Assembly (NCBI GenBank): GCA_934162195.1
Contig: CAKPHO010000002.1
Span: forward strand, 13,689-77,688
Reading direction: 5' to 3'
DNA: 64,000 nt
DNA from: an uncultured Bacilli bacterium
GTDB taxonomy: Bacteria > Bacillota_I > Bacilli_A > RF39 > UBA660
Shown: piece by piece, positions 5,929 through 57,647 of the stretch
How positions within the stretch are numbered: the stretch's first letter is position 1
Layout: every line of letters begins with the position of its first letter
Position numbers and translations under genes: made by a program
Notes under the pieces: generated by a model
What the model was told of the DNA's origin: nothing
Seen by the model: the letters and a program-made list of their open reading frames with translations, nothing else
Database searches by the model: none

Positions 5929-6425
5929 TGAAAAAATTTACAAGATTAACAATGTTACTAGCACTTAGTGTAGTATTAAATATTATAGAAAGTTTTATAC
6001 CACTCTTTAATGGTAATATTCCAGGATTAAAGTTAGGTCTTGCTAATATTATTATTTTAATAGTTTTATATATGTTTTCTTTTAAAGATGCTTTATATGT
6101 ATCACTACTTAGAATAATATTAGTAGGTATTTTAAGAACAGGTTTATTTAGTATGACCTTCTTCTTTTCATTAGGGGGAGCTTTCCTTAGCTTGTGTTCT
6201 ATGTTTATAGCTAAGAAGACTAAACTCTCTATTATAGGTGTAAGTATTGTAGGCTCTATCTTTCACAGTATAGGACAAATTTTAGTTGCAATTCTAATTA
6301 TAAAAAATAGGTACATAATTTATTATGTACCTTGGTTACTTTTATTTTCTATTCCTACAGGTATATTAGTAGGATTTACAAGCAAGACTATTTTAAATAA
6401 CTTGGAGAATAGAAAAATAATATAA
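5925..6425 (+). CDS. Gx transporter family protein (heptaprenyl diphosphate synthase component I-like)
   Basis: 166-aa five-TM protein beginning LALSVVLNIIESFIPL. The context is the usual ApbE / NusG_II / Gx trio, and the start overlaps the upstream stop (ATGATG). Confidence 0.65.
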   Translation: MMKKFTRLTMLLALSVVLNIIESFIPLFNGNIPGLKLGLANIIILIVLYMFSFKDALYVSLLRIILVGILRTGLFSMTFFFSLGGAFLSLCSMFIAKKTKLSIIGVSIVGSIFHSIGQILVAILIIKNRYIIYYVPWLLLFSIPTGILVGFTSKTILNNLENRKII

Positions 6426-6485
6426 AGATACTTGCAAACTGGATGACAATGATGTATACTTAGTACAGTAAAGGACAGTGGTAGT

Positions 6486-6545
6486 ATGGTTAAAGTAGCT
6501 TTGAAAATAATAGCAAAAGCACCAACCTGGGGGGGGGTTATTTAA
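6486..6545 (+). CDS. candidate 19-codon leader peptide MVKVALKIIAKAPTWGGVI
   Basis: AAAGGA lies 10 nt upstream of the ATG. The paralogous copy at 31989-32048 has the same length and frame and the same MVK...PTWGGVI ends, although the middle differs at the nucleotide level. Confidence 0.45.
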   Translation: MVKVALKIIAKAPTWGGVI

Positions 6546-6575
6546 TCATACTATAGTATTAAATGATAAAGAAAA

Positions 6576-6624
6576 CACAAAGTTTCTAGACTTTTTAGTA
6601 GTCTAGATTTCTTTGTGCTTTTTT
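6576..6624 (+). terminator. intrinsic terminator between the uORF and the pilin gene
   Basis: CACAAAG-TTT-CTAGACT / AGTCTAG-ATT?TTT-CTTTGTG long hairpin with a 3x3 internal loop, followed by CTTTTTTG. It is conserved in copy 2. Confidence 0.65.
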
Positions 6625-6674
6625 GTTGTACCTTTACAAAAAAAGTAAATCTAAATAAAAGAAGGAGGAAGATT

Positions 6675-7574
6675 ATGAAATTAAAAAATAAATACGGATT
6701 TACACTTATTGAATTACTAGCGGTAATAGTAGTATTAGCAATAATCGCACTAATCGCAACACCAATAGTAATGAATACAATTAAGAATGCGAAGAAAGGA
6801 GCGGCTGAAAGAAGTGCGGATAGCTATGTTAAACAAGTAGAAGTAGCAGTAGCAGAAGAACGACTAAATAAAAATGAAGTACCAGAAGGCGAATATCAAA
6901 TAACAAGTGATGGAAATCTATGTAGAGATAAAAGTGCAAGTTGTTCAGATGAAGAAAAAATAAAAATTGAAATGAGCGGAACAAAACCAACATCAGGGAA
7001 AATAAAGATAACAAATGGAAGTGTTGATCAAACATCATCAAGTATGACAATAGGAGATTATACTGTTTCATATAATTCTACTAAAAAAACATATGAAGCA
7101 ACAGAGAAAGGGAATACAACTCCTGATACACAATCAACAACAGTAGTGTATAGATGGGCACCAGATACTATAGAAATAGGTGATACAATAAATCCAAGTG
7201 ATTATACAAAAGATGCAAGTACATTAGGAAAAAGTAATTATTTAAAACATGTATTAGATAAAGATGATAAAGTAATAGAATCATATGCATGTGTTATATT
7301 TAATAGTAAAGAATATTGTTTAAGAGGAGGGAACTCATCTTTCTATGGATATGCAGAAAATGAAGCAGATTATACAGGAAATGCGTTAATATTAAAACAA
7401 ATAAAAGATGCAAAAATAGAGGGAATAAGCTGCTACTTCAATGCTAGCAACTGTAACTGCCATGATGGCTCCGTTAGTTTGAATGTGAATTCGTATGGTG
7501 ACGTTAGTGCGGGCGATGTTGATGGCGGCTGCTCCGTCGGTGGTGATGGTAGTTCGTATTGCGTAAGCGCGTAG
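6675..7574 (+). CDS. modular type IV pilin-like protein A (class III signal peptide plus C-terminal Cys/Gly-rich domain)
   Basis: MKLKNKYG/FTLIELLAVIVVLAIIALIATP has the prepilin cleavage motif with Glu at +5. RBS GAAGGAGGA precedes ATG 6675, so the ORF-track start at 6615 is rejected. The first ~145 aa are paralogous to the pilin at 32257. Confidence 0.85.
   Translation: MKLKNKYGFTLIELLAVIVVLAIIALIATPIVMNTIKNAKKGAAERSADSYVKQVEVAVAEERLNKNEVPEGEYQITSDGNLCRDKSASCSDEEKIKIEMSGTKPTSGKIKITNGSVDQTSSSMTIGDYTVSYNSTKKTYEATEKGNTTPDTQSTTVVYRWAPDTIEIGDTINPSDYTKDASTLGKSNYLKHVLDKDDKVIESYACVIFNSKEYCLRGGNSSFYGYAENEADYTGNALILKQIKDAKIEGISCYFNASNCNCHDGSVSLNVNSYGDVSAGDVDGGCSVGGDGSSYCVSA
7428..7574 (+). other. 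adenine-avoiding, codon-phased segment at the pilin A C-terminus (candidate DGR variable region)
   Basis: Of 48 codons, 47 end in C, T or G (a single GTA). GC is ~50% by hand count against ~30% upstream. Locally rare codons are used (GCG, TCG, GTG), and the boundary at ~7428 is sharp. Confidence 0.45.
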
Positions 7575-7606
7575 TTGTGCGCCTCTGTTCATATGATTAT
7601 AGTTAT

Positions 7607-7638
7607 AGATTATAGATAGATTCTATAATCTTTTTTTT
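7607..7638 (+). terminator. intrinsic terminator
   Basis: AGATTATAG-(7 nt)-CTATAATCT followed by T8. Confidence 0.7.
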
Positions 7639-7716: not shown

Positions 7717-8283
7717 ATGAAAAAAAGTTTAGGTATTGTGATTGGAGTAGTGGCTGCTGTTTTAATTATAATTGGTTTATTTGGTTCAAGCTACAATAAG
7801 ATGGTTAAAGAAAACGAAAATGTTGAAAGTAAATATTCAGATATTTCTGTTCAATTAAAAAGAAGAACTGATTTAATTCCAAATTTAGTTAATACTGTTA
7901 AAGGTTATATGGAACATGAACAAAATGTTATTGATAGTATTACTACAGCTCGTTCTAATTTAATGAGTGCAAAGACAGTTGAAGAACAAGCTAAAGCTAA
8001 CTCTGAATTAACCAGTGCATTAAATGCTCTTGCTGTTGTTGTAGAAAATTATCCAGATTTAAAAGCTAATACAAATTTTATACAATTACAAGATGAATTA
8101 GCTGGTACTGAAAATAGAATAGCTGTATCACGCAAAGATTATAATGATGCTGTTAAGAGTTATAATCAAATGATTAAAAGCTTTCCAAAAAATTTAGTTG
8201 TTGGTATGTTTGGTTTTGAAAAGAAAGCATATTTTGAAATTTCAGAATCAGAAAAAGAGGTACCAAATGTTTCATTTGAATAG
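7717..8283 (+). CDS. lemA: LemA family protein
   Basis: N-terminal TM plus LemA signature regions (RRTDLIPNLV, YMEHEQ, ENYPDLKAN, ELAGTENRIAVSRKDYN). Confidence 0.9.
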   Translation: MKKSLGIVIGVVAAVLIIIGLFGSSYNKMVKENENVESKYSDISVQLKRRTDLIPNLVNTVKGYMEHEQNVIDSITTARSNLMSAKTVEEQAKANSELTSALNALAVVVENYPDLKANTNFIQLQDELAGTENRIAVSRKDYNDAVKSYNQMIKSFPKNLVVGMFGFEKKAYFEISESEKEVPNVSFE

Positions 8284-9196
8284 GATTAAAAAGTATTTAA
8301 TCCTTCTTCTTTTATTTATTAGTATAGGTTGTTTTAGTAATGTAAAAGCTTTGGTAAATCCTACAAATGAATTTTATGTAAATGACTATGCTAATATATT
8401 ATCTGAAGAAACTGAAAAATATATTATTGATAAAAGTTCAAAACTAGCTAATGTTGATGGAACGCAAATTGTTGTTGTGACAGTTCCAAATTTAGAAGGT
8501 CAAAGTTTGGAATCTTATGCAACTGCGTTATTTCGTAAATTTGGAATAGGCAATAAAGAAAAGAATAATGGATTACTGTTATTACTTGCTTTAGAAGAAA
8601 GGCAGTTTAGAGTAGAGGTAGGATATGGTCTTGAAGGTATACTTCCAGATGGAAAAACAGGAAGGTTTCAAGATCAATATATAATTCCATATTTAAGAGA
8701 GAATAATTGGGATGAAGGAATTAAAAATGGTTATGATGCTTTCTATTCTGAAATAGTTAAACAAAATAATTTGGATTTAAGTTATACTGAAGCTACTGCT
8801 ATTGCGGATAGTCAAGGAGATTCGGAAAATTTAATGTTACTATTATTCTTAGGAGCGGTAATTGGATGCGTAAATGGTGCCATTTTAAAGAATGTGGTAA
8901 AAAATAAAGGTATTGGAATAAAGGTTTTAGCATTTATTTTGTACTACGTATTTGTATTTATTGTTGCAGGATGGGCACTTAGTAATAATTTACAAAATTT
9001 ATTTCTTTGTTTATGCCCAATGAATCCTATCGCATTCTTGTTTGGTTATTTAAATTTGCAAACTCGAATAGGTTCTGGATCTGGTGGATATGGAGGATGG
9101 TCATCAGGTGGTAGTAGTTGGGGTTCTTCCGGAGGCGGAGGATTCTCTGGCGGAGGAGGTTCTTCTGGTGGTGGAGGAAGCTCAAGAGGTTTTTAG
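8267..9196 (+). CDS. TPM domain-containing protein (YgcG-like) with Gly/Ser-rich tail
   Basis: Signal peptide, a TPM phosphatase-like domain (VNDYANILSEE...QIVVVTV...NGLLLLLALEERQFRVEVGYGLEG), TM segments and a GGSSGGG tail. It forms the usual LemA-TPM pair. ATG 8267 was chosen instead of 8198. Confidence 0.8.
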   Translation: MFHLNRIKKYLILLLLFISIGCFSNVKALVNPTNEFYVNDYANILSEETEKYIIDKSSKLANVDGTQIVVVTVPNLEGQSLESYATALFRKFGIGNKEKNNGLLLLLALEERQFRVEVGYGLEGILPDGKTGRFQDQYIIPYLRENNWDEGIKNGYDAFYSEIVKQNNLDLSYTEATAIADSQGDSENLMLLLFLGAVIGCVNGAILKNVVKNKGIGIKVLAFILYYVFVFIVAGWALSNNLQNLFLCLCPMNPIAFLFGYLNLQTRIGSGSGGYGGWSSGGSSWGSSGGGGFSGGGGSSGGGGSSRGF

Positions 9197-9210
9197 AAAG
9201 GAATATAAAA

Positions 9211-10188: not shown

Positions 10189-11068
10189 AGAAGTAAAAAC
10201 AAGATTAGACCAATATTTAAGTGAAAAAACTGAGTATAGCCGTAGTCAAATACAAAAAATGATTAAAGATGGTCTTGTTTTAGTAAATGATAAAAAAATT
10301 AAGAGTAGCTATATCCTAAAAATAGGTGATGTTTTAGAAATTGGTGAGCCAGAAGTGGATGTGTTAAGTGCAGAACCAGAAAAAATGGATTTAGATATAG
10401 TCTATGAAGATGATGATATTATTGTTGTTAATAAAGCAAATGGTGTAGTAGTACATCCTGCTGTTGGAAATAATCATGGAACACTTGTTAATGGTCTTGC
10501 TTATCATTCTAAAAATCTTAGTGATTTAAATGGTGAATTTAGACCGGGAATAGTACATAGAATTGATGCATATACAACAGGCTTATTAGTAGTTGCTAAA
10601 AATAACAAAGCACACGAGTCATTAGCGCGTCAATTAGAAGAAAAGTCAACACATCGTAAATATATCGCTTTAGTTTGGGGTGTTATTAATAATGAAACTG
10701 GTACTATTGATGCTCCTATCGGTAGAGATGAAAAAGACCGCAAAAAGATGGCTGTAACATCAACTAATAGCAAGCATGCTATTACACATTTTAAAGTATT
10801 AGAAAGATATAAAGATGCTACTTTAATTGAAGTAGAACTTGAAACTGGAAGAACACATCAAATTAGAGTTCATATGAATTATATAGGACATCCAGTAGTT
10901 AATGATCCAGTTTATGGAAATAAAAAATTAATAGATGAAACAGGACAATGTTTACATGCTAAAGAGTTAGGATTTGTTCATCCAACTACTGGAAAATATG
11001 TAGAATTTTCTAGCGAATTACCTAAATGTTTTGTTAATATTTTAAACAAATTTAAAGGGAGTGATTAA
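10166..11068 (+). CDS. rluD: 23S rRNA pseudouridine synthase, RluA/RluD family
   Basis: S4 domain (RLDQYLS) plus HRIDAYTTGLLVVAK and TGRTHQIRVH motifs. The lspA-rluD order is conserved. The start (GTG 10166) is uncertain by a few codons. Confidence 0.9.
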   Translation: MNKIEINEEVKTRLDQYLSEKTEYSRSQIQKMIKDGLVLVNDKKIKSSYILKIGDVLEIGEPEVDVLSAEPEKMDLDIVYEDDDIIVVNKANGVVVHPAVGNNHGTLVNGLAYHSKNLSDLNGEFRPGIVHRIDAYTTGLLVVAKNNKAHESLARQLEEKSTHRKYIALVWGVINNETGTIDAPIGRDEKDRKKMAVTSTNSKHAITHFKVLERYKDATLIEVELETGRTHQIRVHMNYIGHPVVNDPVYGNKKLIDETGQCLHAKELGFVHPTTGKYVEFSSELPKCFVNILNKFKGSD

Positions 11069-12217
11069 ATGGAAAGTATAATCAATAAAAATGATGAATT
11101 GGTTATGAAATTATTACATTATTTCATAACAGAAAAAGGTTATAATCCAATTGTTTTACATGGTGCTCAAAATGAAATATGGCTTGAAAACTTGGATCAA
11201 GACTATAAGATTGTAAGAATTGTAAGTAATTATATTCATAATGATGAACAATTAGATTTTGATATATTTAAAACAAAAAATATTATGAAAAAGATTAAAA
11301 GAAAAACCTTTTCTTTTAATATGAATGCTTTAAGTATTTTTCTAAATTTAGGTGATAATGTTCATTTTAATAATGATAAATTTGGTTCTAATTTGATTGC
11401 CATTGATTTAAAGAATTTTAATGATTTAGAAAATAACCAAGCAATAATAAAATCATTTCCAGATATTTGTAAAAAAGAAGAAACAAATGAAGATGGTTTT
11501 AATTTGTTTATGAAATTGACAAAGGATATTAATGATAAAAACGAGGTCGAAGCTAAGAAAGCAGAAGATATATTTACAAAGAAAAGACCGATTATTACTT
11601 ATGCTTTAATAATTATTAATGTCTTGGTTTTTATAGCAATGTATATTTTTGGTAAAGGTAGTGAAGATAATTTAACATTAGTATTATTTGGTGCTAATTA
11701 TCCAGCTTTAGTAAGAGCGGGAGATTATTATCGCCTTATTACAAGTGCTTTTCTTCATTCAGGTTTACTACATTTAATATTTAATAACTATGCATTATAT
11801 GTAATAGGTTCACAATTAGAAAGTTTTTTAGGTAGAGTTAAATTTTTGATCATATATTTAGTAAGTGCTATATGTGGAAGTTTAATGTCAATGTTATTTA
11901 GCAATGGAATAAGTGTAGGAGCTAGTGGTGCAATATTTGGTCTTTTAGGTTCACTTTTATATTTTGGATACAATTATCGTGTATATTTAGGTACTGTTTT
12001 AAAATCTCAAATAATACCTCTAATTATTCTTAACTTAATAATTGGTTTTGTAACACCAGGAATTGATAATGCTGCTCATATCGGAGGACTTTTAGGAGGA
12101 CTTGGTATGACTATGGCATTAGGTATCAAATATAAAACAAGTACATTTGAGAAAGTAAATGGTAAAATAATAATGGCTATATATGTAGGATTTTTAATTT
12201 TTATGGCATTTTTTTGA
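11069..12217 (+). CDS. rhomboid family intramembrane serine protease (YqgP/GluP-like)
   Basis: Cytoplasmic N-domain followed by a rhomboid core with HSGLLHLIFN, GASGAIFGL and AHIGG motifs. Confidence 0.85.
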   Translation: MESIINKNDELVMKLLHYFITEKGYNPIVLHGAQNEIWLENLDQDYKIVRIVSNYIHNDEQLDFDIFKTKNIMKKIKRKTFSFNMNALSIFLNLGDNVHFNNDKFGSNLIAIDLKNFNDLENNQAIIKSFPDICKKEETNEDGFNLFMKLTKDINDKNEVEAKKAEDIFTKKRPIITYALIIINVLVFIAMYIFGKGSEDNLTLVLFGANYPALVRAGDYYRLITSAFLHSGLLHLIFNNYALYVIGSQLESFLGRVKFLIIYLVSAICGSLMSMLFSNGISVGASGAIFGLLGSLLYFGYNYRVYLGTVLKSQIIPLIILNLIIGFVTPGIDNAAHIGGLLGGLGMTMALGIKYKTSTFEKVNGKIIMAIYVGFLIFMAFF

Positions 12218-29781: not shown

Positions 29782-31914
29782 ATGAAAAAAGTATTTGAAA
29801 TGGATTTTAGAGGAAGAAAAATAGTTGTTGAAAATGGAGAAATGGCTAAACAGGCAAATGGTGCAGTTTTAGTTAGATATGGTGATACTGTAGTACTATC
29901 TACAGCAGTTGTAAAAAAAGAAGCAAATATTTTATCTGACTTTTTTCCTTTGATGGTAATATATCAAGAAAAATTATATTCAGTTGGAAAGATTCCAGGG
30001 GGATTTATAAAAAGAGAGGGAAGACCAACGGATGCGGCTACACTTGCTGCGCGTATGATTGATCGTCCTATGCGCCCAATGTTTAGAGAAGATTTTAAAA
30101 ATGAGGTTCAAATTGTTAATACAGTATTATCTGTAGATACTGATAATTCACCTGAATTAACAGCAATGTTAGGCTCTTCTCTAGCAGTAGGAATTAGTGA
30201 AATACCTTTTGATGGACCAATTGCTGGTGTTAAAGTAGGGCATGTTAATGGAGAATTTATTATTAACCCAACTCCTGCTGAACTAGAATTATCTGATATC
30301 GATTTAACTGTTGCCGGAACTAAAGACGCTATTAATATGGTAGAAGCAGGAGCTAAACAAGTATCAGAAGATTTAATGTTAGAAGCATTAATGTTTGGTC
30401 ATGAAGCAATTAAAGAACTTGTTGAATTCCAAGAAAAAATCATTGCTGAAATAGGCGAAGAAGACATGGAATATGAAAAACTAGAGATAACTTCTGAATT
30501 CAAAAAAGAAATTAGAGATCTAGTTGAAGATAAATTAAATAAAGCTATGCGTATTAAAGAAAAGTTAGAAAAATATGCAGCTATAGATAATGCTAAAGAA
30601 GAAGTTGTAGAAAAATATCGTTTAGAATATGAAGATAAAATAAAAGAAAAAGAACTAAACGAATTATTAACTAAAGTTAAATTAGTACTTGAAGAAATAG
30701 AATATGAAATATTTAGATGTATAGTAGTTAAAGAACATACTCGTGCAGATGGACGAGCTATGACAGAAATTAGACCATTATCAACTGATATTGATATTCT
30801 ACCACGTACTCATGGTTCAGCGTTATTTACAAGAGGAGAAACACAAGCTTTAGCAATTACAACACTTGGAGCTTTAGGTGAACACCAAATATTAGATGGT
30901 CTTTCTTTAGAAGCCGAAAAGAGATTTATGTTACATTACAACTTCCCAGCATTCTCAGTAGGAGAAACAGGAAGATATGGAGCTCCTGGTAGAAGAGAAA
31001 TTGGACATGGAGCATTAGGAGAAAGAGCTTTACTTCAAGTAATGCCAAGTGAAGATGAATTCCCTTACACTGTTCGTGTTGTATCAGAAGTATTAGAAAG
31101 TAATGGTTCATCAAGCCAGGCAACGATTTGTGCTGGATGTATGAGTTTAATGGCTGCTGGTGTTCCTATTAAAGCCCCAGTTGCTGGTATAGCTATGGGA
31201 TTAATTACTGATGGTGATGATTATACTATTCTTACTGATATTCAAGGTATGGAAGATCATTTAGGAGATATGGATTTTAAAGTGGCAGGTACAAGAGATG
31301 GTATTTGTGCTTTACAAATGGATATCAAAATTAAAGGTATTACTAAACAGATTTTAAAAGAAGCTTTAGCTCAAGCAAAAGCAGCTCGTATGGAAATTCT
31401 TGATGTTATAGAAGCTCAAATAAAAGAACCAAGAAAAGAAGTTAGTAAGTATGCACCTAAAACTTTAACATTTACAATTGATCCAAATAAAATTAAAGAT
31501 GTTATTGGTAAAGGTGGAGAAACAATTACAAACATCATTCTTGAAGCTTCAAATGTAACAGCAGTAACAGATATGAATGCCGTTAAAGTTGATTTAGAAG
31601 ATGATGGTAGAGTAATTATTTATCACTCTGATAAAGAGATAATTGAAAGAACTGCTCAAATGATTAAAGATATTGTTCGTGAAGTAGAAGATGGCAAAGT
31701 TTATACTGGTAAAGTAGTAAAAGTAGAGGACTTTGGATGCTTTGTAGAATTATGGCCTGGATGTGAAGGATTAGTACATGTTTCACAACTTGCTAATGAA
31801 AGAGTAGAAAAACCTAGTGATGTTGTTAAAGTAGGGGACGAAATAATAGTTAAGTCATTAGGATATGATAAAAAAGGAAGATTAAATCTTTCTCGTAAAG
31901 AAGCTTTAAAATAG
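29782..31914 (+). CDS. pnp: polyribonucleotide nucleotidyltransferase (PNPase)
   Basis: Two RNase PH domains, a KH domain (VIGKGGETI) and an S1 domain ([15 protein letters not shown]). The rpsO-pnp order is conserved. Confidence 0.95.
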
Positions 31915-31988
31915 AAGCTTTATGGAAAAAACTACTTGTCAATATATCTAAAAAATGATACTATTGATATAGTAAAGGTAGTGATAGT

Positions 31989-32048
31989 ATGGTTAAAGAG
32001 ATAAATATGAAACTAGCTCAAAATCCAACCTGGGGGGGGGTTATTTAA
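31989..32048 (+). CDS. candidate 19-codon leader peptide MVKEINMKLAQNPTWGGVI
   Basis: Same length, frame, RBS spacing and MVK/PTWGGVI termini as 6486-6545. The G9 tract at 32032-32040 encodes W-G-G. Confidence 0.45.
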   Translation: MVKEINMKLAQNPTWGGVI

Positions 32049-32078
32049 TCATACTATAGTATTAAAAAATAAAGAAAA

Positions 32079-32125
32079 CACAAAGTTTCTAGACTTTTTG
32101 ATAGTCTAGATTTCTTTGTGTTTTT
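32079..32125 (+). terminator. intrinsic terminator between the uORF and the pilin gene
   Basis: Same hairpin arms as 6576-6617, followed by TTTTTAT. Confidence 0.6.
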
Positions 32126-32256
32126 ATGTGTACCTTTATAAGAAAGGGGTTGTTGTATAAATACATAAATATAGATAAAACATGTATTATGACTAGATGT
32201 TTATAAGAAATAAAACAAGGTATAATTAAAGTATAAAGTAAATAAGGAGGTATAGT

Positions 32257-33417
32257 ATGAAAAAGAAAGGATTTACTTTAATAGAATTACTAGCGGTAAT
32301 AGTAGTATTAGCAATAATAGCACTAATTGCAACACCAATAGTAATGAATACGATAAAAAGTGCAAAGAAAGGAGCTGCAGAAAGATCTGCGGATAGTTAT
32401 ATTGGAGCCGTAGAAACAGCAGTTGCAACAGCAAAATTAGATGGTAAAGATATACCAGATGGAACATACCAAATAGATAGTGATGGTAATTTAACAGGAG
32501 AAGGGTTACCAGATGGTAAATTAACAATAGATATGAAAGGAAATAAGCCAACAGGAGGAACAATAACAATAAAGAATGGACAAGTAACAAATGATTCAGA
32601 GATGACTATTGGAGATTATGATGTTAAATATAATGAAGATAACAATAAATATGAAGCAACCAAGTTAAAAACATATATAAATGGAGAGGTAGTATATTTT
32701 AATGTAACAACAGGAGAAAAATGTACATCATCAGATTATACAGAAACACAAAGTAATACAGGAACAAATAGGGGCTGTATGAAATTTTATGCCTTTAATG
32801 ATGATGGAGGAAATACAGTAAACTTAATATTGGATCACAATACAACAGCAACTGTAGCATGGAATTCAAGTAATAGTAATACAAATGGGCCAAAAGAAGT
32901 ATTAGAACAATTAAAAAAGGATACTGAATCATGGGAAGGGACAATAACACCGGCAAATTATACAATGGATCAAACAGGACAACCAAGTAATGCAAAATAT
33001 ACAATAGATTATAGTAGTTATAAAGCAAGATTAATAACAGCTAACGAAATAGCAAAAATTACAGGAAATACTTCTTGGAACGAGAAAACTGCAAGTAACA
33101 TATTCTATTTTGATACCAATACATCAACGATAAGTTCAACATGTGCTAAAGGAAATACAAGTGGATGTTCATATAGATGGTTATATGATAGATCAAGCAC
33201 CTATTGTACAACATATGGATGTTTAAATAATGCTGATTCTGCAATGACTGGAATTGGATATTGGACAGCATCTTCTCATGTCGGCTACGTTGGCACCATC
33301 TCTAACCGTGCTTGGTACGTGAACTGCCGCGCTCACGCGAACTACGGCGGCGTTTTCGATTCGAGCAGCCTTGGCGTTCGCCCAGTTATAGAAGTATTAA
33401 AATCTAAACTTTCATAA
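32257..33417 (+). CDS. modular type IV pilin-like protein B (pilin module plus DUF1566/C-type-lectin-like C-terminal domain)
   Basis: MKKKG/FTLIELLAV prepilin motif. The C-terminal domain carries ARLITANEIAKITG, GYWTASS and GVRPVIEV, as in Lcl/DUF1566-like folds. Confidence 0.85.
   Translation: MKKKGFTLIELLAVIVVLAIIALIATPIVMNTIKSAKKGAAERSADSYIGAVETAVATAKLDGKDIPDGTYQIDSDGNLTGEGLPDGKLTIDMKGNKPTGGTITIKNGQVTNDSEMTIGDYDVKYNEDNNKYEATKLKTYINGEVVYFNVTTGEKCTSSDYTETQSNTGTNRGCMKFYAFNDDGGNTVNLILDHNTTATVAWNSSNSNTNGPKEVLEQLKKDTESWEGTITPANYTMDQTGQPSNAKYTIDYSSYKARLITANEIAKITGNTSWNEKTASNIFYFDTNTSTISSTCAKGNTSGCSYRWLYDRSSTYCTTYGCLNNADSAMTGIGYWTASSHVGYVGTISNRAWYVNCRAHANYGGVFDSSSLGVRPVIEVLKSKLS
33280..33384 (+). 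other. adenine-avoiding, codon-phased segment near the pilin B C-terminus (candidate DGR variable region)
   Basis: Of 35 codons, 34 do not end in A. GC is ~61% by hand count. All three Arg codons are CGY although AGA dominates elsewhere in the window. AAC, TAC, CAC, AGC and GGC codons are enriched. Confidence 0.5.
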
Positions 33418-33426
33418 AAAGAAGAT

Positions 33427-33452
33427 AAACTGTGTAAGAACACAGTTTTCTT
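33427..33452 (+). terminator. intrinsic terminator
   Basis: AAACTGTGT-AAGA-ACACAGTTT followed by TCTT. Confidence 0.6.
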
Positions 33453-33515
33453 ATGATTTTAAAAGTGTTTACTTTATAATATAATTGTGGTAGAATACAT
33501 TCACGAGGTGAATGT

Positions 33516-39266: not shown

Positions 39267-39316
39267 TCTTCTTGTATTTTTTTTTATTTAAAGATATAAT
39301 AAATATAGGTGATAGA

Positions 39317-40270
39317 ATGAAACGAGGATTTACTTTAATAGAATTGATGGCTGTTATTGTTGTTCTAGGTATATTAGCAACAATATCAATAATATCTGTA
39401 GATAAGATAATTAAAGAAAATAAAGAAGAAACATATAAGGCACAAATTGCAACAATAGAAGATGCTGCCCGTACCTGGGGAGTAAAGCATATAAAAGAAC
39501 TTCCTGATAGTAATGGTGCTATATCTGTACCACTTCTTTATTTTAAAAATGAAGGAATAATACCACAAGATTTTAAAAATCCCAAAACAAATAAACCATT
39601 TAATGATGATTTATATGTAAATATTAGTTATGAAGGCGGTATATATAAATATGAAGTTGATGAAGCAAGTGGTCTTGGAACAAATGCTAATCCAACATTA
39701 TTAAAAAGAAGATATAGTTTATGTAAATTAGTAAATGGAACAAAGGAAACGGTAGGAGCAAAATATACATGTCATTTAGATAGTGATAGAACATTCTATG
39801 TATTAGAAACAAGTAAAGATAATGTATCACTAATTATGGATAGAAACTTCACAGATGCTATTGTACCTTCCAAATTAGCGTGGTGTATAGATGGTGGAAG
39901 TGATGGTTCAACATGTAAGAGTATAAATTCGAAAGAATATGGAACACCATTAAAACATATTCAAGATATATTTGGAACGGAGGTAGAAGTAAGTATTCCA
40001 AGTCCTAATCAAATAGCTGCTGCATCTGGAAAGACATTTTCTAGTGGAGACTTAATTTCTGGCTTATCATCTTGGTTATATGATTATTTAGATGGTACAA
40101 CTCACCCAGTATCTGGAGTATTAGGCTATTGGATATCAACAACTATAGATTCTAATTCTTCAAGTGCTTATATTACCATATACACTGGAAATATGTATGG
40201 AAGCAATGTTAACTCTAGCGATGGAGGCCTTCGCCCAGTTATTACAGTTGCAAAATCACAATTACAATAA
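39317..40270 (+). CDS. modular type IV pilin-like protein C (pilin module plus DUF1566/lectin-like C-terminal domain)
   Basis: MKRG/FTLIELMAV prepilin motif. The C-terminus has PSPNQIAAASG, GYWISTT and GGLRPVITV. Codon usage is AT-rich throughout, and the uORF leader is absent. Confidence 0.85.
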   Translation: MKRGFTLIELMAVIVVLGILATISIISVDKIIKENKEETYKAQIATIEDAARTWGVKHIKELPDSNGAISVPLLYFKNEGIIPQDFKNPKTNKPFNDDLYVNISYEGGIYKYEVDEASGLGTNANPTLLKRRYSLCKLVNGTKETVGAKYTCHLDSDRTFYVLETSKDNVSLIMDRNFTDAIVPSKLAWCIDGGSDGSTCKSINSKEYGTPLKHIQDIFGTEVEVSIPSPNQIAAASGKTFSSGDLISGLSSWLYDYLDGTTHPVSGVLGYWISTTIDSNSSSAYITIYTGNMYGSNVNSSDGGLRPVITVAKSQLQ

Positions 40271-51645: not shown

Positions 51646-54081
51646 ATGGACAAAGCAAATACTTCATTTTTTAAACTTGTCTATAAAATACTATTATATA
51701 TATTATTAATACCAGTCAGAAGTGTTAAGCTTTTTTGTTTAGGACTTTTTTACTGTTTTTATGTATTTACCAATTTTATTATAAACACTGTTATTTTAAT
51801 ATCATTTATTTTATATAAAGCAATAAAGTACTGTCTATTATCTTTAACTTTGCCAGTAATGATTGTTAATAGCTTAAAAAGAAAAGTTAAACATAAAAAA
51901 CAATATAACAAAGATGATGAAATTGTTAGAATACCAGATAATGCTCTAGAAATAGAAAATAATTATCAAATTAATAATTCTAAAGAGTTAGAAGATAATT
52001 CTGATGCGACTGTTCCTGATTTAGAAGAACCAGAATTAATGCCTGAAGAAGATACTTCAGTTCCAGAAGATATAGTTGAACCTATTACTGAGGATACTGT
52101 CGCTGATAGCGAACCAGATGAAAGTCTTGAATCATTAGATGTTCCTGAAGTTCAAGATGATGTAATGCCTATTGAAAATAATGAACCAATAGCTATATCA
52201 GAACCTATAAATAGCTCTGATGAGATAATAAAAATAAACGATATTCCTAAAAAGAAGCGTCATATAAGTTGGAGAAAATTATTCTTACCACTTCAAATTA
52301 TTTCTTATCCCGTTTATAAACTAGTTAAATATTTTACTTTTGGATTAGCGGTATTATTAAATTACTTTATAAAGGGATTTACAGTTGTAAGTTTTTATGT
52401 TTATAAATTATTTAAATATTTATTGTTCTCATTAGGTATTTTCTTGATGTTATATAATATTTTTGCTCGTAAAAATGAGAAAGCTAGAGCAATTAAAGCT
52501 AAAATTAAGCTAGAAAGAGTTCAAAAAAGAAAAGAAGCACAATTTAAAGCTAAATTACTTGTTCAACAAAAACAAGAAAATAAATTAAGAGAAGAATTAA
52601 GAAAGAAAAAAGAAAAAGAAGAAAACGAGTATCTAAGCAAAAGAACGCCAACTGAGAAAAAAACATTCAAAGAAAAAGTAGATGCTTTATTAAATTCAAT
52701 TTTCTCTTTCCCTAAAGTTGTTTTTAACAAGATTAAATATGGATTACAAAATTCCGTATTTGTTAAAGATTATAAGAACAAAAAAGATATGAGTAGGCAA
52801 GTTCTTTTGATTAATTTTGAAGGAGAAGATGCTGAAAAGAGTGATATTAAAGTTGTATATCAATATACAGCTAAGGATCCTAATGGAAAGATTGTAACAG
52901 ATTATTTTGAAGCTTATTCAAAAGTAGAAGTTCATTCATTCCTTTTAAGTGAAGGTTACGAAGTATATAATATTAAAACTAATAAGTGGATTCAGTTTGC
53001 TCATAAAAGCGCCTCTGTATCGTCTGCTAAAATGAAAAATAAGGATTTAATATTTTTCTTAACACAACTTTCAACTTATATTAAAGCAGGTATACCTTTA
53101 GTAGAAGCTTTAAAAATTTTAGCTAGACAATATTCTAAAAATAAAGCATATCAAAAATTATTTAGAACTATTATTTATGATTTGTCTATGGGAGAAAGCT
53201 TTAGTACTGCACTTGAAAAACAAAAAGATGCTTTTCCTAGAATCTTAATAAATATGATTAAAGCATCAGAGTTAACTGGAGAGTTGCCAGAAGTATTAGA
53301 TGATATGGCAGAGTATTTCACTGAAATGGAGAAAACAAAAAAACAAATGGTTACAGCGTTAATGTATCCAATGATTATTTTAGTATTTGCCATAGGTGTT
53401 ATTATTTTCATACTCGTTGGAGTTATTCCTCAATTTGTTGAGATTTATAGCAGTATGGATTCAGCGCAAATTCCAGGATTTACATTATTTATCTTATCAG
53501 TTAGTGATTACTTAAAGAATAACTATTTAATATTAATTGTTATTGTAACGGTAGTAGTAGTTACTTTAGTATATTTATATAAAAATGTAAAAGTGTTTAG
53601 GACTCTAGCACAATGGTTCTTTATGCATATGCCAGTTATAGGAAATGTTATCATTTATAATGAAGTAACAATATTTACTAAAACATTTTCTTCATTACTA
53701 TCACACAATGTATTTATTACAGATAGTATGAATATTCTTAATAAAGTAACAAACAATGAAATTTATAAAATGATTATTCTAGATACAATTACCAACTTAG
53801 CTAAGGGTGAAAAAATATCTAAGTCATTTGAAAACCACTGGGCTTTTCCAATACCTGCATATGAAATGTTAGTAACAGGGGAAAAGACTGGACAACTTCC
53901 AGAAATGATGAAAAAAGTTTCTGAGTATTATCAAGATTTACATAAAAACTCAGTTACAAGAATCAAAACATTTATTGAACCAATATTGATAATATTCTTA
54001 ACGGTAATAGTTGGTGCCATTGTATTAGCTATCGTTATACCGATGTTTAACCTTTATCAATCAGTTCAAAATTATAGTTAG
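51646..54081 (+). CDS. pilC: PilC/GspF-family platform protein with ~400-aa N-terminal extension
   Basis: From about residue 395 (VVYQYTAKDPNGKIV) onward it is a canonical two-repeat T2SSF protein. Residues 1-390 contain two related TM-hairpin modules, an acidic Pro/Glu/Asp spacer and a Lys/Glu coil. Confidence 0.8.
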   Translation: MDKANTSFFKLVYKILLYILLIPVRSVKLFCLGLFYCFYVFTNFIINTVILISFILYKAIKYCLLSLTLPVMIVNSLKRKVKHKKQYNKDDEIVRIPDNALEIENNYQINNSKELEDNSDATVPDLEEPELMPEEDTSVPEDIVEPITEDTVADSEPDESLESLDVPEVQDDVMPIENNEPIAISEPINSSDEIIKINDIPKKKRHISWRKLFLPLQIISYPVYKLVKYFTFGLAVLLNYFIKGFTVVSFYVYKLFKYLLFSLGIFLMLYNIFARKNEKARAIKAKIKLERVQKRKEAQFKAKLLVQQKQENKLREELRKKKEKEENEYLSKRTPTEKKTFKEKVDALLNSIFSFPKVVFNKIKYGLQNSVFVKDYKNKKDMSRQVLLINFEGEDAEKSDIKVVYQYTAKDPNGKIVTDYFEAYSKVEVHSFLLSEGYEVYNIKTNKWIQFAHKSASVSSAKMKNKDLIFFLTQLSTYIKAGIPLVEALKILARQYSKNKAYQKLFRTIIYDLSMGESFSTALEKQKDAFPRILINMIKASELTGELPEVLDDMAEYFTEMEKTKKQMVTALMYPMIILVFAIGVIIFILVGVIPQFVEIYSSMDSAQIPGFTLFILSVSDYLKNNYLILIVIVTVVVVTLVYLYKNVKVFRTLAQWFFMHMPVIGNVIIYNEVTIFTKTFSSLLSHNVFITDSMNILNKVTNNEIYKMIILDTITNLAKGEKISKSFENHWAFPIPAYEMLVTGEKTGQLPEMMKKVSEYYQDLHKNSVTRIKTFIEPILIIFLTVIVGAIVLAIVIPMFNLYQSVQNYS

Positions 54082-54089
54082 GGGGATTT

Positions 54090-54854
54090 ATGGAGTTATA
54101 TTATTCTTTATGTTTCTTTGTATTAGGAACCATTCTTGGTTCTTTCTACAATGTAGTAGGTTATAGATTGCCAAAAGGGGAATCAATTGTTTCCCCTCCA
54201 TCTCATTGTCCAAATTGCAATCATAGACTTAAATTTTGGGAATTACTCCCAATTGTGTCGTTTATATTACAAAGAGGTAAATGTACAAGTTGTAAACAAA
54301 AAATATCATGGTTTTATCCAATTTTTGAATTTAGTTGTGGCCTAGTATTTGCTTTAGCTTTTTTATCATTTGGGTTAAGTTGGAATTTGTTAATAGCTTT
54401 AACGTTTGTATCAATGTTAATTATAGTAATGGTAAGCGATTATATTTATATGATAATCCCAGATGAAATTTTACTATTTTTTGGAATAGCTCTATCTATT
54501 GAAATGTTATTTATAGATGGATATCATAGTCTTTTATTAAGTCTAGGAAACGGCTGTATTGCGGCTTTATTCATTTATTTATTAAAAATGTTAGGAGATT
54601 TGATTTTTAAAAAAGAATCCATGGGTGGAGGAGATATAAAGCTATTATTCATTTTTGGTCTAGTATTAGGCTGGCAACTTTCTGTTTTTTCTATTTTTTT
54701 AGCATCAATTATAGGGTTGCCATTATCATTATTAATTTTGTATAAAAACAAAGATCATGTTATTCCTTTTGGACCATTTTTAAGTATAGGGGCGTTAATA
54801 ATTTTGATTACTAGAATAGATTTAAATTGGTTATTGAATATATTGATTAAATAA
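54090..54854 (+). CDS. pilD: prepilin peptidase (A24 family)
   Basis: CPNC...CTSC zinc-binding motifs, the catalytic Asp contexts (VSDYIYMIIPDE, GGGDIKLL) and 7-8 TM segments. Confidence 0.9.
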   Translation: MELYYSLCFFVLGTILGSFYNVVGYRLPKGESIVSPPSHCPNCNHRLKFWELLPIVSFILQRGKCTSCKQKISWFYPIFEFSCGLVFALAFLSFGLSWNLLIALTFVSMLIIVMVSDYIYMIIPDEILLFFGIALSIEMLFIDGYHSLLLSLGNGCIAALFIYLLKMLGDLIFKKESMGGGDIKLLFIFGLVLGWQLSVFSIFLASIIGLPLSLLILYKNKDHVIPFGPFLSIGALIILITRIDLNWLLNILIK

Positions 54855-54985
54855 TATAAAAACAAGGATGATTAAATTGATATAAACCCAATTTCTTTGA
54901 ATAGAAATGGTATTTAGTTCAAAACATCCTTTTATAGTAAACTAATTTAAAATATTACAACAAAAAACGTATTTTATAATACGTT

Positions 54986-56485
54986 TTAATTTTTTTCATT
55001 TTTATTAATTTCTTCAATATCATCGCTCTCACTGTAACCTTCTGTTTGAGCTTCTGCATTAGTATCTACCATTTCAGTTGTTTCTTCTTCATTGTCATTA
55101 TTTGATGTTTCTATCTCTTCAGAATTATCTTCTGTTTTATTATCTGTGTCTTCATTAATATCTTCTTTTTTCTTTTTGTTTGTATTTTCGATTTCGGCTT
55201 CGTTTTCTTTCTGTATTCTTTCATGTTCTTCATTGTTTATATTAGCATACTTAAGCGCTGTTTGTAAATCGTAATCTCCAGCAATTTTATCATCATCATC
55301 TAATTCAATAATTTTTAGTAATTCTTCAAAAGTAGTTAAACCATTAGCAACTTTATCAAGCCCATCTTGAAGTAGAGTAACAACATCTGATTTATAAACT
55401 AATTCACGTAATTTATCACGTCTAATACCTCTACTTATAGCATCTTTGATTTCATCATTAATCATTAATACTTCGTGAATAGCAATACGACCTTTATAAC
55501 CATTACCACATTCTTCACAACCAACAGTAGTATATACTTCATCAATTTCTTTACCGATTACTTTTTTAAATAATTCTTTTTCATAATCATTAGTAGGTCT
55601 TTTTTCTCTACAGTGAGGACACAATCTTCTTGCTAATTTCTGAGAAACAATACCAGTTAAAGCACTAGAAAGTAAGTATCTTTCAACTTCCATATCAAGT
55701 AAACGTTCAATAGTATTTAATGAGTTGTTGGTGTGTAATGTAGAAAGAACTAAGTGCCCAGTAATTGATGCACGAACGGCAATTTTAGCTGTTTCAGTAT
55801 CACGAATTTCTCCAATCATTATTATGTTAGGATCTTGACGTAAGATTGAACGAAGAGCAGTAGCAAAAGTTAACCCGATTTCACTGTTTGTTTGAACTTG
55901 GTTAATACCAGCAATATCCATTTCTATTGGATCCTCAACTGTAATGATATTTGTTTCTTCACGGTTTAAACGTTGTAATATAGAATATACTGTTGTAGAT
56001 TTACCACTACCAGTAGCACCGGTTACAAGAATAATTCCGTTAGGAACATTAATCATCTCTAGCATCTTTTTGTAGTTACTTTCACTAAACCCTAGATGTT
56101 CAAGCCCTGATAAACTCATTGAGTAATCAAGAATACGAATAACTATTTTTTCTCCTTCGCTAGTAGGTAAGCTAGAAACACGGAGGTCTAAGTTAATACC
56201 TTGAAGTGTTGCTTTAATCGCACCATCTTGAGGTAATCTTGATTCAGTAATATTCATACCAGAAATTATCTTAACACGAGTAATTAAATTCTTTTTAATA
56301 GTATTAGGAACTTCTGTATAATCAATTAATTGACCATCAATACGGATTCTTATCTTTAAGTATTCTTCATATGGATCGAAGTGAATATCACTCGCTCCAC
56401 GTTTACTAGCGTCAACTAATATTTCATTAACAACCTCAACGACAGGTATTTTTTCATAATCAAAAATTTTGAGCACTGTACTCAA
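54986..56485 (-). CDS. pilB: type IV pilus / competence assembly ATPase (PilB/ComGA/GspE family) with acidic C-terminal tail
   Basis: SDIHFDP, Walker A GATGSGKSTT, Asp box, Walker B IIMIGEIRD, His box HLVLSTLHTN and the CxxC...CxxC tetracysteine motif. About 100 extra Asp/Glu/Asn-rich residues follow at the C-terminus. Confidence 0.9.
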   Translation of the reverse strand: MSTVLKIFDYEKIPVVEVVNEILVDASKRGASDIHFDPYEEYLKIRIRIDGQLIDYTEVPNTIKKNLITRVKIISGMNITESRLPQDGAIKATLQGINLDLRVSSLPTSEGEKIVIRILDYSMSLSGLEHLGFSESNYKKMLEMINVPNGIILVTGATGSGKSTTVYSILQRLNREETNIITVEDPIEMDIAGINQVQTNSEIGLTFATALRSILRQDPNIIMIGEIRDTETAKIAVRASITGHLVLSTLHTNNSLNTIERLLDMEVERYLLSSALTGIVSQKLARRLCPHCREKRPTNDYEKELFKKVIGKEIDEVYTTVGCEECGNGYKGRIAIHEVLMINDEIKDAISRGIRRDKLRELVYKSDVVTLLQDGLDKVANGLTTFEELLKIIELDDDDKIAGDYDLQTALKYANINNEEHERIQKENEAEIENTNKKKKEDINEDTDNKTEDNSEEIETSNNDNEEETTEMVDTNAEAQTEGYSESDDIEEINKNEKN

Positions 56486-56590
56486 CCCCTTTAATAAATT
56501 TTTTCTATTCTTCCATTTAGGACTAGTATTAATCCTAAAAATATTATATAATAAAAATATAATAAATACAATAATAACGAGGTAAAAAAT

Positions 56591-57043
56591 ATGAAAAAAA
56601 ATAATAAAGGATTTATGCTTGCAGAAGTATTTATAGTTTCTAGCTTTGTACTTGGAATTTTAGTTTATATTTTTGTTCAAACAAACAGTATTATGAGAAA
56701 TTACAATAGAAGTTTTTCATATGATACTGTACAAGGTCTTTATATTACAAATGAAGTAAAGAAGTTTATAGGTTATAGTGGATATGATAAAAATGAACTT
56801 GCTAATGCATGTGATACTTATCAATTTTTTGATGTATCTGATTATTATTATCAACGTATAAAACGAGCAGCAAATATCAAAACTGTTATATTAGGTAATT
56901 TGAATTATATGAAAGAAAATGTGGCAAACGATTCTAATATTTCTGCAAAAGAGAAAGATTATATTAACTATCTTAGTAACAGAGGTAAATGCGTTTTATT
57001 ATTGGAATTTAATGATGATACTTATGCATCATTAAGTATGTAG
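56591..57043 (+). CDS. minor pilin-like protein (prepilin-type N-terminus)
   Basis: MKKNNKG/FMLAEVFIV with Glu at +5 and a hydrophobic helix. Confidence 0.65.
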   Translation: MKKNNKGFMLAEVFIVSSFVLGILVYIFVQTNSIMRNYNRSFSYDTVQGLYITNEVKKFIGYSGYDKNELANACDTYQFFDVSDYYYQRIKRAANIKTVILGNLNYMKENVANDSNISAKEKDYINYLSNRGKCVLLLEFNDDTYASLSM

Positions 57044-57053
57044 TGGAGGAGTT

Positions 57054-57647
57054 ATGAAAAAAAATCAAGGTTTTTCAATTATAGAATTAATAGTATCTTT
57101 TACTTTAACGATGATTATTGTTGTTATTCTGTTTGAAATTATTATTTCTCTTAAAAATGTATATGAAAATTCTGTTACTAAATCTGCATTAATTAGTAAA
57201 CAAAATATTTTAACCGATTATATATATTCGGATTTTTATGACTATGGTTTAACAAATATAGATGTTTGTGGGAATAATTGTATTCAATTTACATATAAAA
57301 ATGGAGATGTTAAAAACTTATCATGGGAATACGAATATGATGATACTTCACAAAGACAATCATTTCAAAAAATTAAATATGGAGATTATACAGTTGATTT
57401 AATTGCTAATTCAAAGTTTGATTTAAGTTTAAGTGCAAGTCATAATACTTATGAATTTAAAGGCGCAAAAGTTTGTAACTCTTCAAAAACTTATTCTTCA
57501 AGGCTTATATATTTCTTAGATATTAAATTACCAGTTTATAATAATAAATTTGAAAATCAAGATTTTGGTTTAAATATTTTGTATGTTTTCCCTTATGATG
57601 GTACTGATGCTATAGTTTCTAGTTTACCTTATTCGCAAGGTTGTTAA
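57054..57647 (+). CDS. minor pilin-like protein (prepilin-type N-terminal cleavage/methylation domain)
   Basis: MKKNQG/FSIIELIVSFTL with Glu at +5. Confidence 0.7.
   Translation: MKKNQGFSIIELIVSFTLTMIIVVILFEIIISLKNVYENSVTKSALISKQNILTDYIYSDFYDYGLTNIDVCGNNCIQFTYKNGDVKNLSWEYEYDDTSQRQSFQKIKYGDYTVDLIANSKFDLSLSASHNTYEFKGAKVCNSSKTYSSRLIYFLDIKLPVYNNKFENQDFGLNILYVFPYDGTDAIVSSLPYSQGC

Follow-up and report, generated by a model that had tools for sequence, protein, structure and literature searches.

A probable retroelement-written variable region at the 3' end of a type IV pilin gene from an uncultured gut Bacilli bacterium

To our knowledge, no natural system of targeted protein hypermutation other than diversity-generating retroelements (DGRs) is known in prokaryotes; the density of DGRs is highest in the human gut. 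Here we analysed a 64-kb stretch of a contig from an uncultured Bacilli bacterium (the whole stretch of 64,000 nt is called the window below), in which the gene of a type IV pilin, pilin B, ends in a short G+C-rich and adenine-poor segment. DGRs that carry a MutS-like gene (MSL) together with avd are known as 'Architecture D' and include the DGR of Legionella pneumophila (Wu et al. 2018, PMC5758913). The TvpA DGR of Treponema denticola has seven non-adjacent targets (PMC5758913), and DGRs of Bacteroides diversify the tip adhesins of type V pili (bioRxiv 10.1101/2024.11.15.621889). DGR targets with a DUF6273 domain are described from Faecalibacterium prophages and as 'tentaclins', and the domain is reported to be C-type-lectin-like (PMC11792537, PMC10743442). 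Targets of the pilin type are mentioned in passing only (PMC11661182, PMC6642488). We consider it likely that positions 33271-33385 of the window are the variable region (VR) of such a DGR target, a type IV pilin with an adhesin-like C-terminal domain.

The 105-nt segment at 33280-33384 contained 15.2% A, 32.4% C, 28.6% G and 23.8% T, that is 61% G+C, as against 26.6% G+C and 39.8% A in the whole window. It was the highest G+C peak of its length in the 64 kb (z = 6.1, in SD above the mean), and a G+C content of at least 60% was reached only by 105-nt stretches starting at 33277-33283. Seven of its 16 adenines were at codon position 1, eight at position 2 and one at position 3, in the final CCA. 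NNY codons made up 30 of the 35 codons of the segment but 38% of those in the remainder of the pilin B gene, 53% of the codons there having A as the third base. All three Arg codons of the segment were CGY, while in 32 open reading frames (ORFs) of the window AGA accounted for 209 of 314 Arg codons (67%) and CGY for 23% (P ~0.013 for three out of three). An earlier sequence-only reading of this DNA had pointed to the same 35 codons, which read exactly as it quoted them. Its hand count (~61% G+C, ~16% A) agrees with the computed 61% and 15.2%, and its remarks that every A but the last falls at codon position 1 or 2 (15 of 16) and that Arg is CGY (3/3) against an AGA-dominated background (67%) are borne out. 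Homology to the template repeats described below extends slightly beyond its limits, to ~33271-33385.

The C-terminal 247 aa of pilin B had 1,062 homologs, most of them in singleton clusters and 65-73% identical. When 86 homologs of this part were aligned, entropy was low across most of the domain and peaked at residues 341-372. Near-invariant columns within this stretch and just after it (A342, A352, W353, V355, V366, G373, V374, R375 and P376) alternated with variable columns that held 13-17 residue types each, mainly N, S, D, G and Y, as expected if AAY codons of a template become NNY codons. The codons found at the variable positions in the template repeats of relatives were AAC or AAT. 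A scan of species-representative genomes gave 67 loci, all in metagenome-assembled genomes (MAGs) from gut bacteria of uncultured Bacilli or 'Tenericutes' (related loci and contigs are numbered here with the prefix L). Single genomes hold many copies, with 16 loci in the MAG CAKOTU01, 11 each in CAKPKL01 and CAVEJT01 and seven in UQVP01. Among 101 VR-equivalents, 58 had a G+C content of at least 45% and 23 were below 40%; the window VR (60-61%) was among the highest.

Non-coding, AAC-rich copies of the VR, that is template repeats (TRs), were found in the MAGs CAKOTU01, CAKPKL01, CAVEJT01 and JAEYYH01. In three of these four, 250-350 nt separated the TR from the stop codon of the one pilin paralog ahead of it; the TR of JAEYYH01 lay upstream of two pilins. 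Loci with a TR at this distance downstream of a pilin paralog were L002, L020, L024, L056, L087, L088, L091-L095, L117-L120, L122-L124 and L127-L131. The end string of the AAC-rich repeats of this family was CGCCCAGATTTC, and the junctions read ...CGCCCAG/ATTTCC at the end of the TR and ...CGCCCAG/TTATA where the VR continues. The TR flanks were conserved, with a ATTGGGATAA box upstream and ~150 nt downstream, and fit a DGR RNA unit. A scan of viral contigs for the TR junction returned 18 unrelated high-GC hits and no match, and a metagenome scan returned two more copies of the L020 locus and nothing else. The AAC-rich stretch at 11016 of L043 was rejected as a TR; it runs on into coding sequence and is thus an A-rich, barely mutated VR. 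This VR (11016-11135) looked naive, differing from the L020 template at five of 32 A sites.

In L020, L024 and L087 the TR was followed by an ORF of 139 aa similar to MutS_I; past it, L020 and L087 carried a truncated bAvd-like ORF and then lspA-rluD, without a reverse transcriptase (RT) gene. Full cassettes were located by searching with Avd of the L020/L087 type. Their order was pilin - TR - MSL (140 aa, Pfam MutS_I) - bAvd (111 aa, PF22296) - RT. The RTs of L094 and L117-L131 matched RVT_1 and contained LPIGNMSSQ, which has the DGR-type I/LGxxxSQ motif, and YMDD; their clade comprised 3,264 proteins at E ≤ 1e-20, with a full length of 399-402 aa. Intact cassettes had gyrA on one side and two Bro-N genes on the other, with parA-parB-mscS next after the latter. 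Damaged versions were also found. The L002 site had the same downstream context (Bro-N fragment, parA, parB, mscS) and kept its TR, with MSL-avd-RT missing (1861-2113). The RT of L094 was frameshifted into 318 + 83 aa (10320-11527) as against 399-402 aa in relatives, that of L091 was split (10320-11401), and those of L112-L115 were fragmented (52 + 99 + 178 aa). In L020 avd was cut to 87 aa (11692-11955) and the RT was deleted. The MAG CAVEJT01 is titled 'Bacteroidaceae bacterium', yet its contigs (L019, L021, L024 and others) carry the Bacilli pilin family and an MSL gene with 99% identity to the one in the Bacilli MAG CAKPKL01, so that a mislabelled or mixed bin is probable.

The differences between TRs and the adjacent VRs were concentrated at template adenines. 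The L117 pair differed at 19 of 32 A sites and at none of 68 non-A sites, and the pair of the L122 group at 19 of 34 A sites and none of 66 non-A sites. The corresponding figures were 18/33 and 1/68 for L024, 19/35 and 3/65 for L118, and 21/36 and 6/65 for L002. L020 and L088, strains of one species, had nearly identical pilin genes with five differences in the VR, and at all five one strain had the A of the TR and the second another base. Since both the TR/VR differences and the differences between strains fall at template adenines, we regard this pilin family as one that DGRs genuinely target. In the L122 group, seven contigs, each from another sample (L122, L123, L124, L127, L128, L130 and L131), shared one RT protein and an identical VR, and their TR was one base short relative to the VR (AACG-GAAC vs TACGTGAAC); the VR of the group is thus frozen and its template out of register. 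Two further observations concern the match between pilins and templates. The L020 VR (10589-10689) fitted the adjacent TR (10959-11059) in its first half only, the second half having an extra codon and non-A differences, and L087 and L088, from different samples, had near-identical TRs behind different pilins. These cases suggest that paralogs recombine or that a genome may hold several templates.

The VR of the window differed from the closest TRs (L002, L094, L117 and L122) at 17-19 of 30-33 A sites and at 6-9 of ~55 non-A sites. Six of the seven non-A differences from the L094 template were T/C changes. For calibration, random 84-mers of the window gave ~43 non-A mismatches, and TRs of different lineages differed from each other at 9-22 of 84 positions. 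When the three closest TRs are taken together, each position of the window VR agrees with one or more of them or faces an A there. Lying at the 3' end of its ORF, the VR has a GC-rich anchor in common with the TR, resembling in sequence an initiation of mutagenic homing (IMH) element; divergence begins directly past this anchor, GGCGTTCGCCCAG, the VR continuing ...GTTATA and the TR ...GATTTCC. Because the non-A mismatches are few against the calibration, the positions are compatible with the TRs and the anchor is identical, the window VR in all likelihood came from a template of this family. We conclude that it was very probably written by a DGR, and the writing would have followed the course seen in relatives, from a template of the same family.

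Several results weigh against this conclusion. The non-A mismatches just given are one, and no strictly cognate TR for the window VR was present among the TRs found. Within the 64 kb, a TR search under the A-to-N model, which the sequence-only reading had proposed for the whole genome, gave only A-rich chance matches at 25-35% identity, and motif and phmmer searches gave no RT. No cassette was found beyond the window in ~6 kb to the left (dcw cluster) and 3.4 kb to the right (a restriction-enzyme fragment and ORFs without assigned function). Searches for the cassette of the window strain through Avd and RT homologs (P0133, P0130, P0168, P0188) led only to other lineages or non-cognate TRs. The VR contains a 12-nt insertion that occurs in no template or homolog, and the three contigs with the exact pilin B protein, apparently of one strain, showed no allelic variation in the VR. 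No Avd or MSL homolog was found in the window, and the comparisons of remote paralogs with TRs have so far given no match that is strictly A-only. Motif and phmmer searches for RTs in ~1 Mb of related loci, the latter with a Brt sequence, returned nothing; the RTs were found later through Avd homologs.

The lack of a TR and an RT in 64 kb is not decisive, because DGRs can act on remote targets, and an unsampled cognate TR is plausible, because the divergence of TRs between lineages (9-22/84) exceeds the mismatches seen. The unique insertion weighs against active rewriting, because full-length retrohoming would erase it. The view that this segment is a DGR variable region, which the sequence-only reading had put forward as a candidate, is thus upheld by the family-level pattern, the templates, the RT and the A-only differences in relatives, while the cognate template of the window copy was not found among the related TRs.

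In the process that we propose, a cassette of the order pilin - TR - MSL - bAvd - RT would adjoin one pilin paralog elsewhere in the genome and transcribe its AAC-rich TR. The RT would copy the TR into cDNA, placing random bases opposite the template adenines, and the cDNA would replace a homologous VR, anchored at the shared 3' end. AAY codons would thereby turn into NNY codons, which would explain both the G+C-rich, A-poor composition and the position of the remaining adenines at codon positions 1 and 2. Processing of pilin B and its assembly into a pilus would fall to the type IV pilus genes of the window, and the variable surface of the pilin presumably alters what the pilus binds, the adhesin function being itself an inferred one.

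Whether the window VR is still being diversified in the present strain is a separate matter, to which we give slightly less than an even chance. Its main competitor, which we would back just short of evenly, is that the VR is a fossil: written by a DGR earlier, possibly in a donor strain or a paralog, and now a slowly drifting ordinary C-terminus, the cassette being absent, decayed or no longer matching in the window strain. The 6-9 non-A mismatches to every known TR, together with the unique 12-nt insertion, fit a fossil, as does the finding that pilin B is a strain-specific insertion (see below), which may have arrived with its VR already written. Decay of the cassette is common in relatives (L094, L091, L112-L115, L020/L087, L002), and in the L122 group a TR with a 1-nt deletion coexists with a VR identical in seven samples. 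However, at 60-61% G+C the VR is among the most strongly imprinted of the 101 VR-equivalents, and in a genome of 26.6% G+C such an imprint should erode, suggesting fairly recent writing. The 3' anchor is intact, inter-lineage TR divergence leaves room for a cognate TR outside the sample, and activity is evident in sister lineages (the L020/L088 strains and L117).

Two other explanations dispense with a retroelement in the window copy. Hypervariability could arise by diversifying selection together with gene conversion or recombination among pilin paralogs, the composition being incidental. Paralogs are indeed numerous and swapped between loci and strains: L103 has a 64% identical pilin at the same site, L087 and L088 have different pilins before near-identical TRs, and some VRs only half fit the adjacent TR. 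This explanation nevertheless fails on the non-coding AAC-rich templates beside RT and avd, on the A-only differences (non-A 0/68 and 0/66) and on the NNY bias; the TR/VR pairs largely refute it and we consider it very improbable. Recombination probably adds to DGR action rather than replacing it. Foreign G+C-rich DNA, or an artefact of composition or assembly, would account for the sharp switch in composition inside one gene, but the reading frame and the conserved residues (AW.V...GVRPVI) continue through the segment, the same sequence occurs in independent assemblies, and more than 1,000 homologs have the same architecture, which leaves this with hardly any probability. Of the DGR-based explanations, a more far-reaching version is that, in a gut Bacilli lineage of reduced genome size, a dozen or more dispersed pilin genes are served in trans by a single chromosomal DGR of the MSL type located at gyrA-parAB, that cassettes are mobile and the G9 leaders prone to slippage, and that pilin B is a live remote target. 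We think this combination unlikely as a whole; if true, hypermutation, cassette exchange and phase variation would together generate the adhesin repertoire.

The features of the pilin B locus are collected in Table 1.

Table 1. Features at and around the pilin B gene, with positions in the window and the basis of each assignment
Feature	Position	Strand	Basis
Promoter-like box (TTGTCA, 17 nt, TG-TACTAT) that opens the pilin B cassette just past the pnp stop codon	31936..31964	+	Consensus scan; weak
Short leader ORF MVKEINMKLAQNPTWGGVI (then stop) with G9 tract (32032-32040)	31989..32048	+	Sequence; a paralogous leader precedes pilin A
Terminator-like hairpin and T run between leader and pilin B gene, possible attenuator	32088..32110	+	8-bp stem, then TTTCTTTGTG
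Pilin B coding sequence, 386 aa	32257..33417	+	ORF list; exact protein on 3 contigs
Type IV pilin class III signal and N-terminal methylation motif (KKKG/FTLIELLAVIVVLAIIALIA)	32260..32331	+	Pfam N_methyl, E = 1.9e-7, 30.8 bits vs cut-off 21.2
C-terminal adhesin-like domain with VR, residues ~225-386, remotely DUF6273/Lcl_C-like	32929..33414	+	Profile search, 1,169 representative clusters
Probable variable region (VR), residues 339-377	33271..33385	+	Homology to template repeats of related genomes; protein entropy peak 341-372
12-nt insertion GTTGGCACCATC, residues VGTI 345-348	33289..33300	+	Unshared by the other 85 aligned homologs and the templates
GC-rich 3' anchor GGCGTTCGCCCAG	33373..33385	+	Identical to template 3' ends in L094 and L117
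Terminator-like hairpin past the pilin B stop codon	33427..33448	+	Terminator scan
Type IV pilus machinery: T2SSF platform protein, prepilin peptidase, T2SSE ATPase (minus strand), minor pilins	51646..57647	.	Pfam annotations of identical genes in L089

The N-terminus of pilin B, KKKG/FTLIELL, has the Gly at -1, Phe at +1 and Glu at +5 of a type IV pilin, followed by a hydrophobic helix. No Pfam family other than N_methyl matched the protein. The pilus genes listed in Table 1 are proposed as the means by which pilin B would be processed and assembled. The 12-nt insertion resembles an incomplete tandem copy of the GTCGGCTAC in front of it.

The scaffold had been taken for one of DUF1566/CLec type in the sequence-only reading. 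Pfam cut-offs are 34.9 bits for Lcl_C (PF07603, the former DUF1566) and 23.5 bits for DUF6273 (PF19789). The window copy gave no match to Lcl_C even at E ≤ 10, and none to DUF6273. Seven of 15 close members of the family matched Lcl_C weakly (best E = 0.0017); family members scored no more than 12-14 bits, and distant paralogs 11-14 bits. DUF6273 was matched by five of the 15 close members and by five of 61 distant representatives (best E = 2e-7), and the distant paralogs L061 (28.5 bits) and L066 (25.8 bits) passed its cut-off. The 61 distant representatives, drawn from the 1,169 clusters, included 31 with pilin N-termini and none with Lcl_C at E ≤ 0.001; others carried Listeria-Bacteroides repeats or Ig-like domains, which fit a surface adhesin module. 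By these profile matches the closest curated family to the scaffold is DUF6273, not DUF1566, and the DUF1566 label does not hold. The structure prediction that had been proposed gave no confirmation of a C-type lectin fold. Two AlphaFold2 models (pLDDT 53.9 and 62.6, pTM 0.61 and 0.67) were too weak across the VR, where pLDDT was below 50, for a fold to be assigned; Foldseek against the PDB gave a best E of 3.6 and a sequence profile search of the PDB gave nothing.

Pilin C of the window (39272..40270) provides an internal control. It has the same C-terminal scaffold (...GYWISTT...GLRPVITV), with GLRPVITVAKSQLQ and the anchor CTTCGCCCAG, and its VR-equivalent is ordinary AT-rich coding sequence with 38% G+C and 32% A. 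The fold therefore does not dictate the composition. Pilin C is either an undiversified paralog or one with an eroded imprint.

In eight of ten related contigs, pnp was directly followed by ndk and the pilin B cassette (~31915-33500) was absent. Three of these eight came from conspecific strains whose identity to the window was 99.0-99.6% across 8 kb. A pilin at the pnp-ndk site was found only in the window strain and in L103, the two pilins being 64% identical. Since the gene is missing from eight of ten contigs and replaced by a 64% identical one in L103, pilin B is a strain-variable cassette. The comparison indicates that pilin genes are gained, lost or swapped at fixed chromosomal sites. 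Besides the pilin gene and its terminator, the insert carries a promoter-like box, a leader ORF and a hairpin that ends in a T run. The promoter-like box lies inside the segment missing from strains without pilin B; such sites were no more frequent in the window than in shuffled sequences, hence the weak grading of this one. Four terminator-like sites were found against 0.5 expected.

The leader ORF of pilin B has 19 codons and ends in PTWGGVI and a stop codon, encoded through the G9 tract. The upstream elements of pilins B and A (31910-32145 and 6408-6643) were 79% identical, and the leader of pilin A is at 6486-6545 with its G9 at 6529-6537. Each of the two elements contains a tiny ORF with the PTWGGVI end and, past it, a terminator-like hairpin. 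In relatives the tract had 9 G in six cases and 11 G in one. The leader, with its G9 tract and the hairpin behind it, may be a phase-variable or attenuating leader.

Two further G+C islands were present in the window, at 7432-7611 (end of pilin A) and 9051-9209. In the 3' island of pilin A (6675..7574) at 7428-7590, conspecific strains were 72-75% identical as against ~98% in the flanks, and invariant and variable bases were interleaved. No template for this island was found in 1.69 Mb of related DNA. It is a VR-like class different from that of pilin B. The statement that the pilin B segment is not alignable with that of pilin A holds, and the corollary that pilin A would need a template of its own is consistent with its different hypervariable class and with the lack of a template for it among related DNA. 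The island at 9051-9209 was rejected as a template; it encodes the Gly/Ser-rich C-terminal tail (GGGGFSGGGGSSGGGG) of ORF 8198..9196, beside a LemA-like gene, and is ordinary and unrelated to DGRs.

The comparison set spans several stages of a DGR, from a perfect A-only pair through a frozen VR with its template out of register to frameshifted, fragmented and deleted RTs, and such a series can help to find out for how long an imprint persists once its element is lost. In annotating AT-rich genomes, DGR targets can be recognised reliably by a G+C-rich and A-poor island at the 3' end of the gene, even when the retroelement is distant.

As an element, the cassette of the relatives is a known DGR type, that with MSL and avd; its target class, the dispersed type IV pilins of uncultured gut Bacilli, is barely described. 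Like the Architecture D DGRs, it combines a TR, a MutS-like protein, bAvd and a DGR-type RT, is adenine-specific and has the VR at the C-terminus of its target. It differs from them in that the relatives' targets are type IV pilins instead of lipoproteins, with many dispersed paralogs per genome, and in that the host is an uncultured AT-rich gut Bacilli bacterium with the cassette at a chromosomal gyrA...parAB site. With the Treponema TvpA DGR it would share action on remote, scattered targets, of which pilin B would be one; the TvpA system has an HRDC accessory gene and FGE-sulfatase/CLec lipoprotein targets. The DUF6273 targets of phages are alike in having the VR at the C-terminal end of a DUF6273-like domain, but they are phage receptor-binding proteins, whereas the present targets are cellular pilins, the window copy lying below the Pfam thresholds. 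The Bacteroides DGRs likewise vary an adhesive pilus component in gut bacteria. Their pili are of type V, with sortase-like assembly and a separate tip adhesin, and belong to another phylum, whereas here the domain is fused to a type IV pilin N-terminus. The pilin locus would thus extend the DGR logic of pilus adhesins to the type IV pilins of AT-rich Bacilli, with 16 pilin loci in one MAG.

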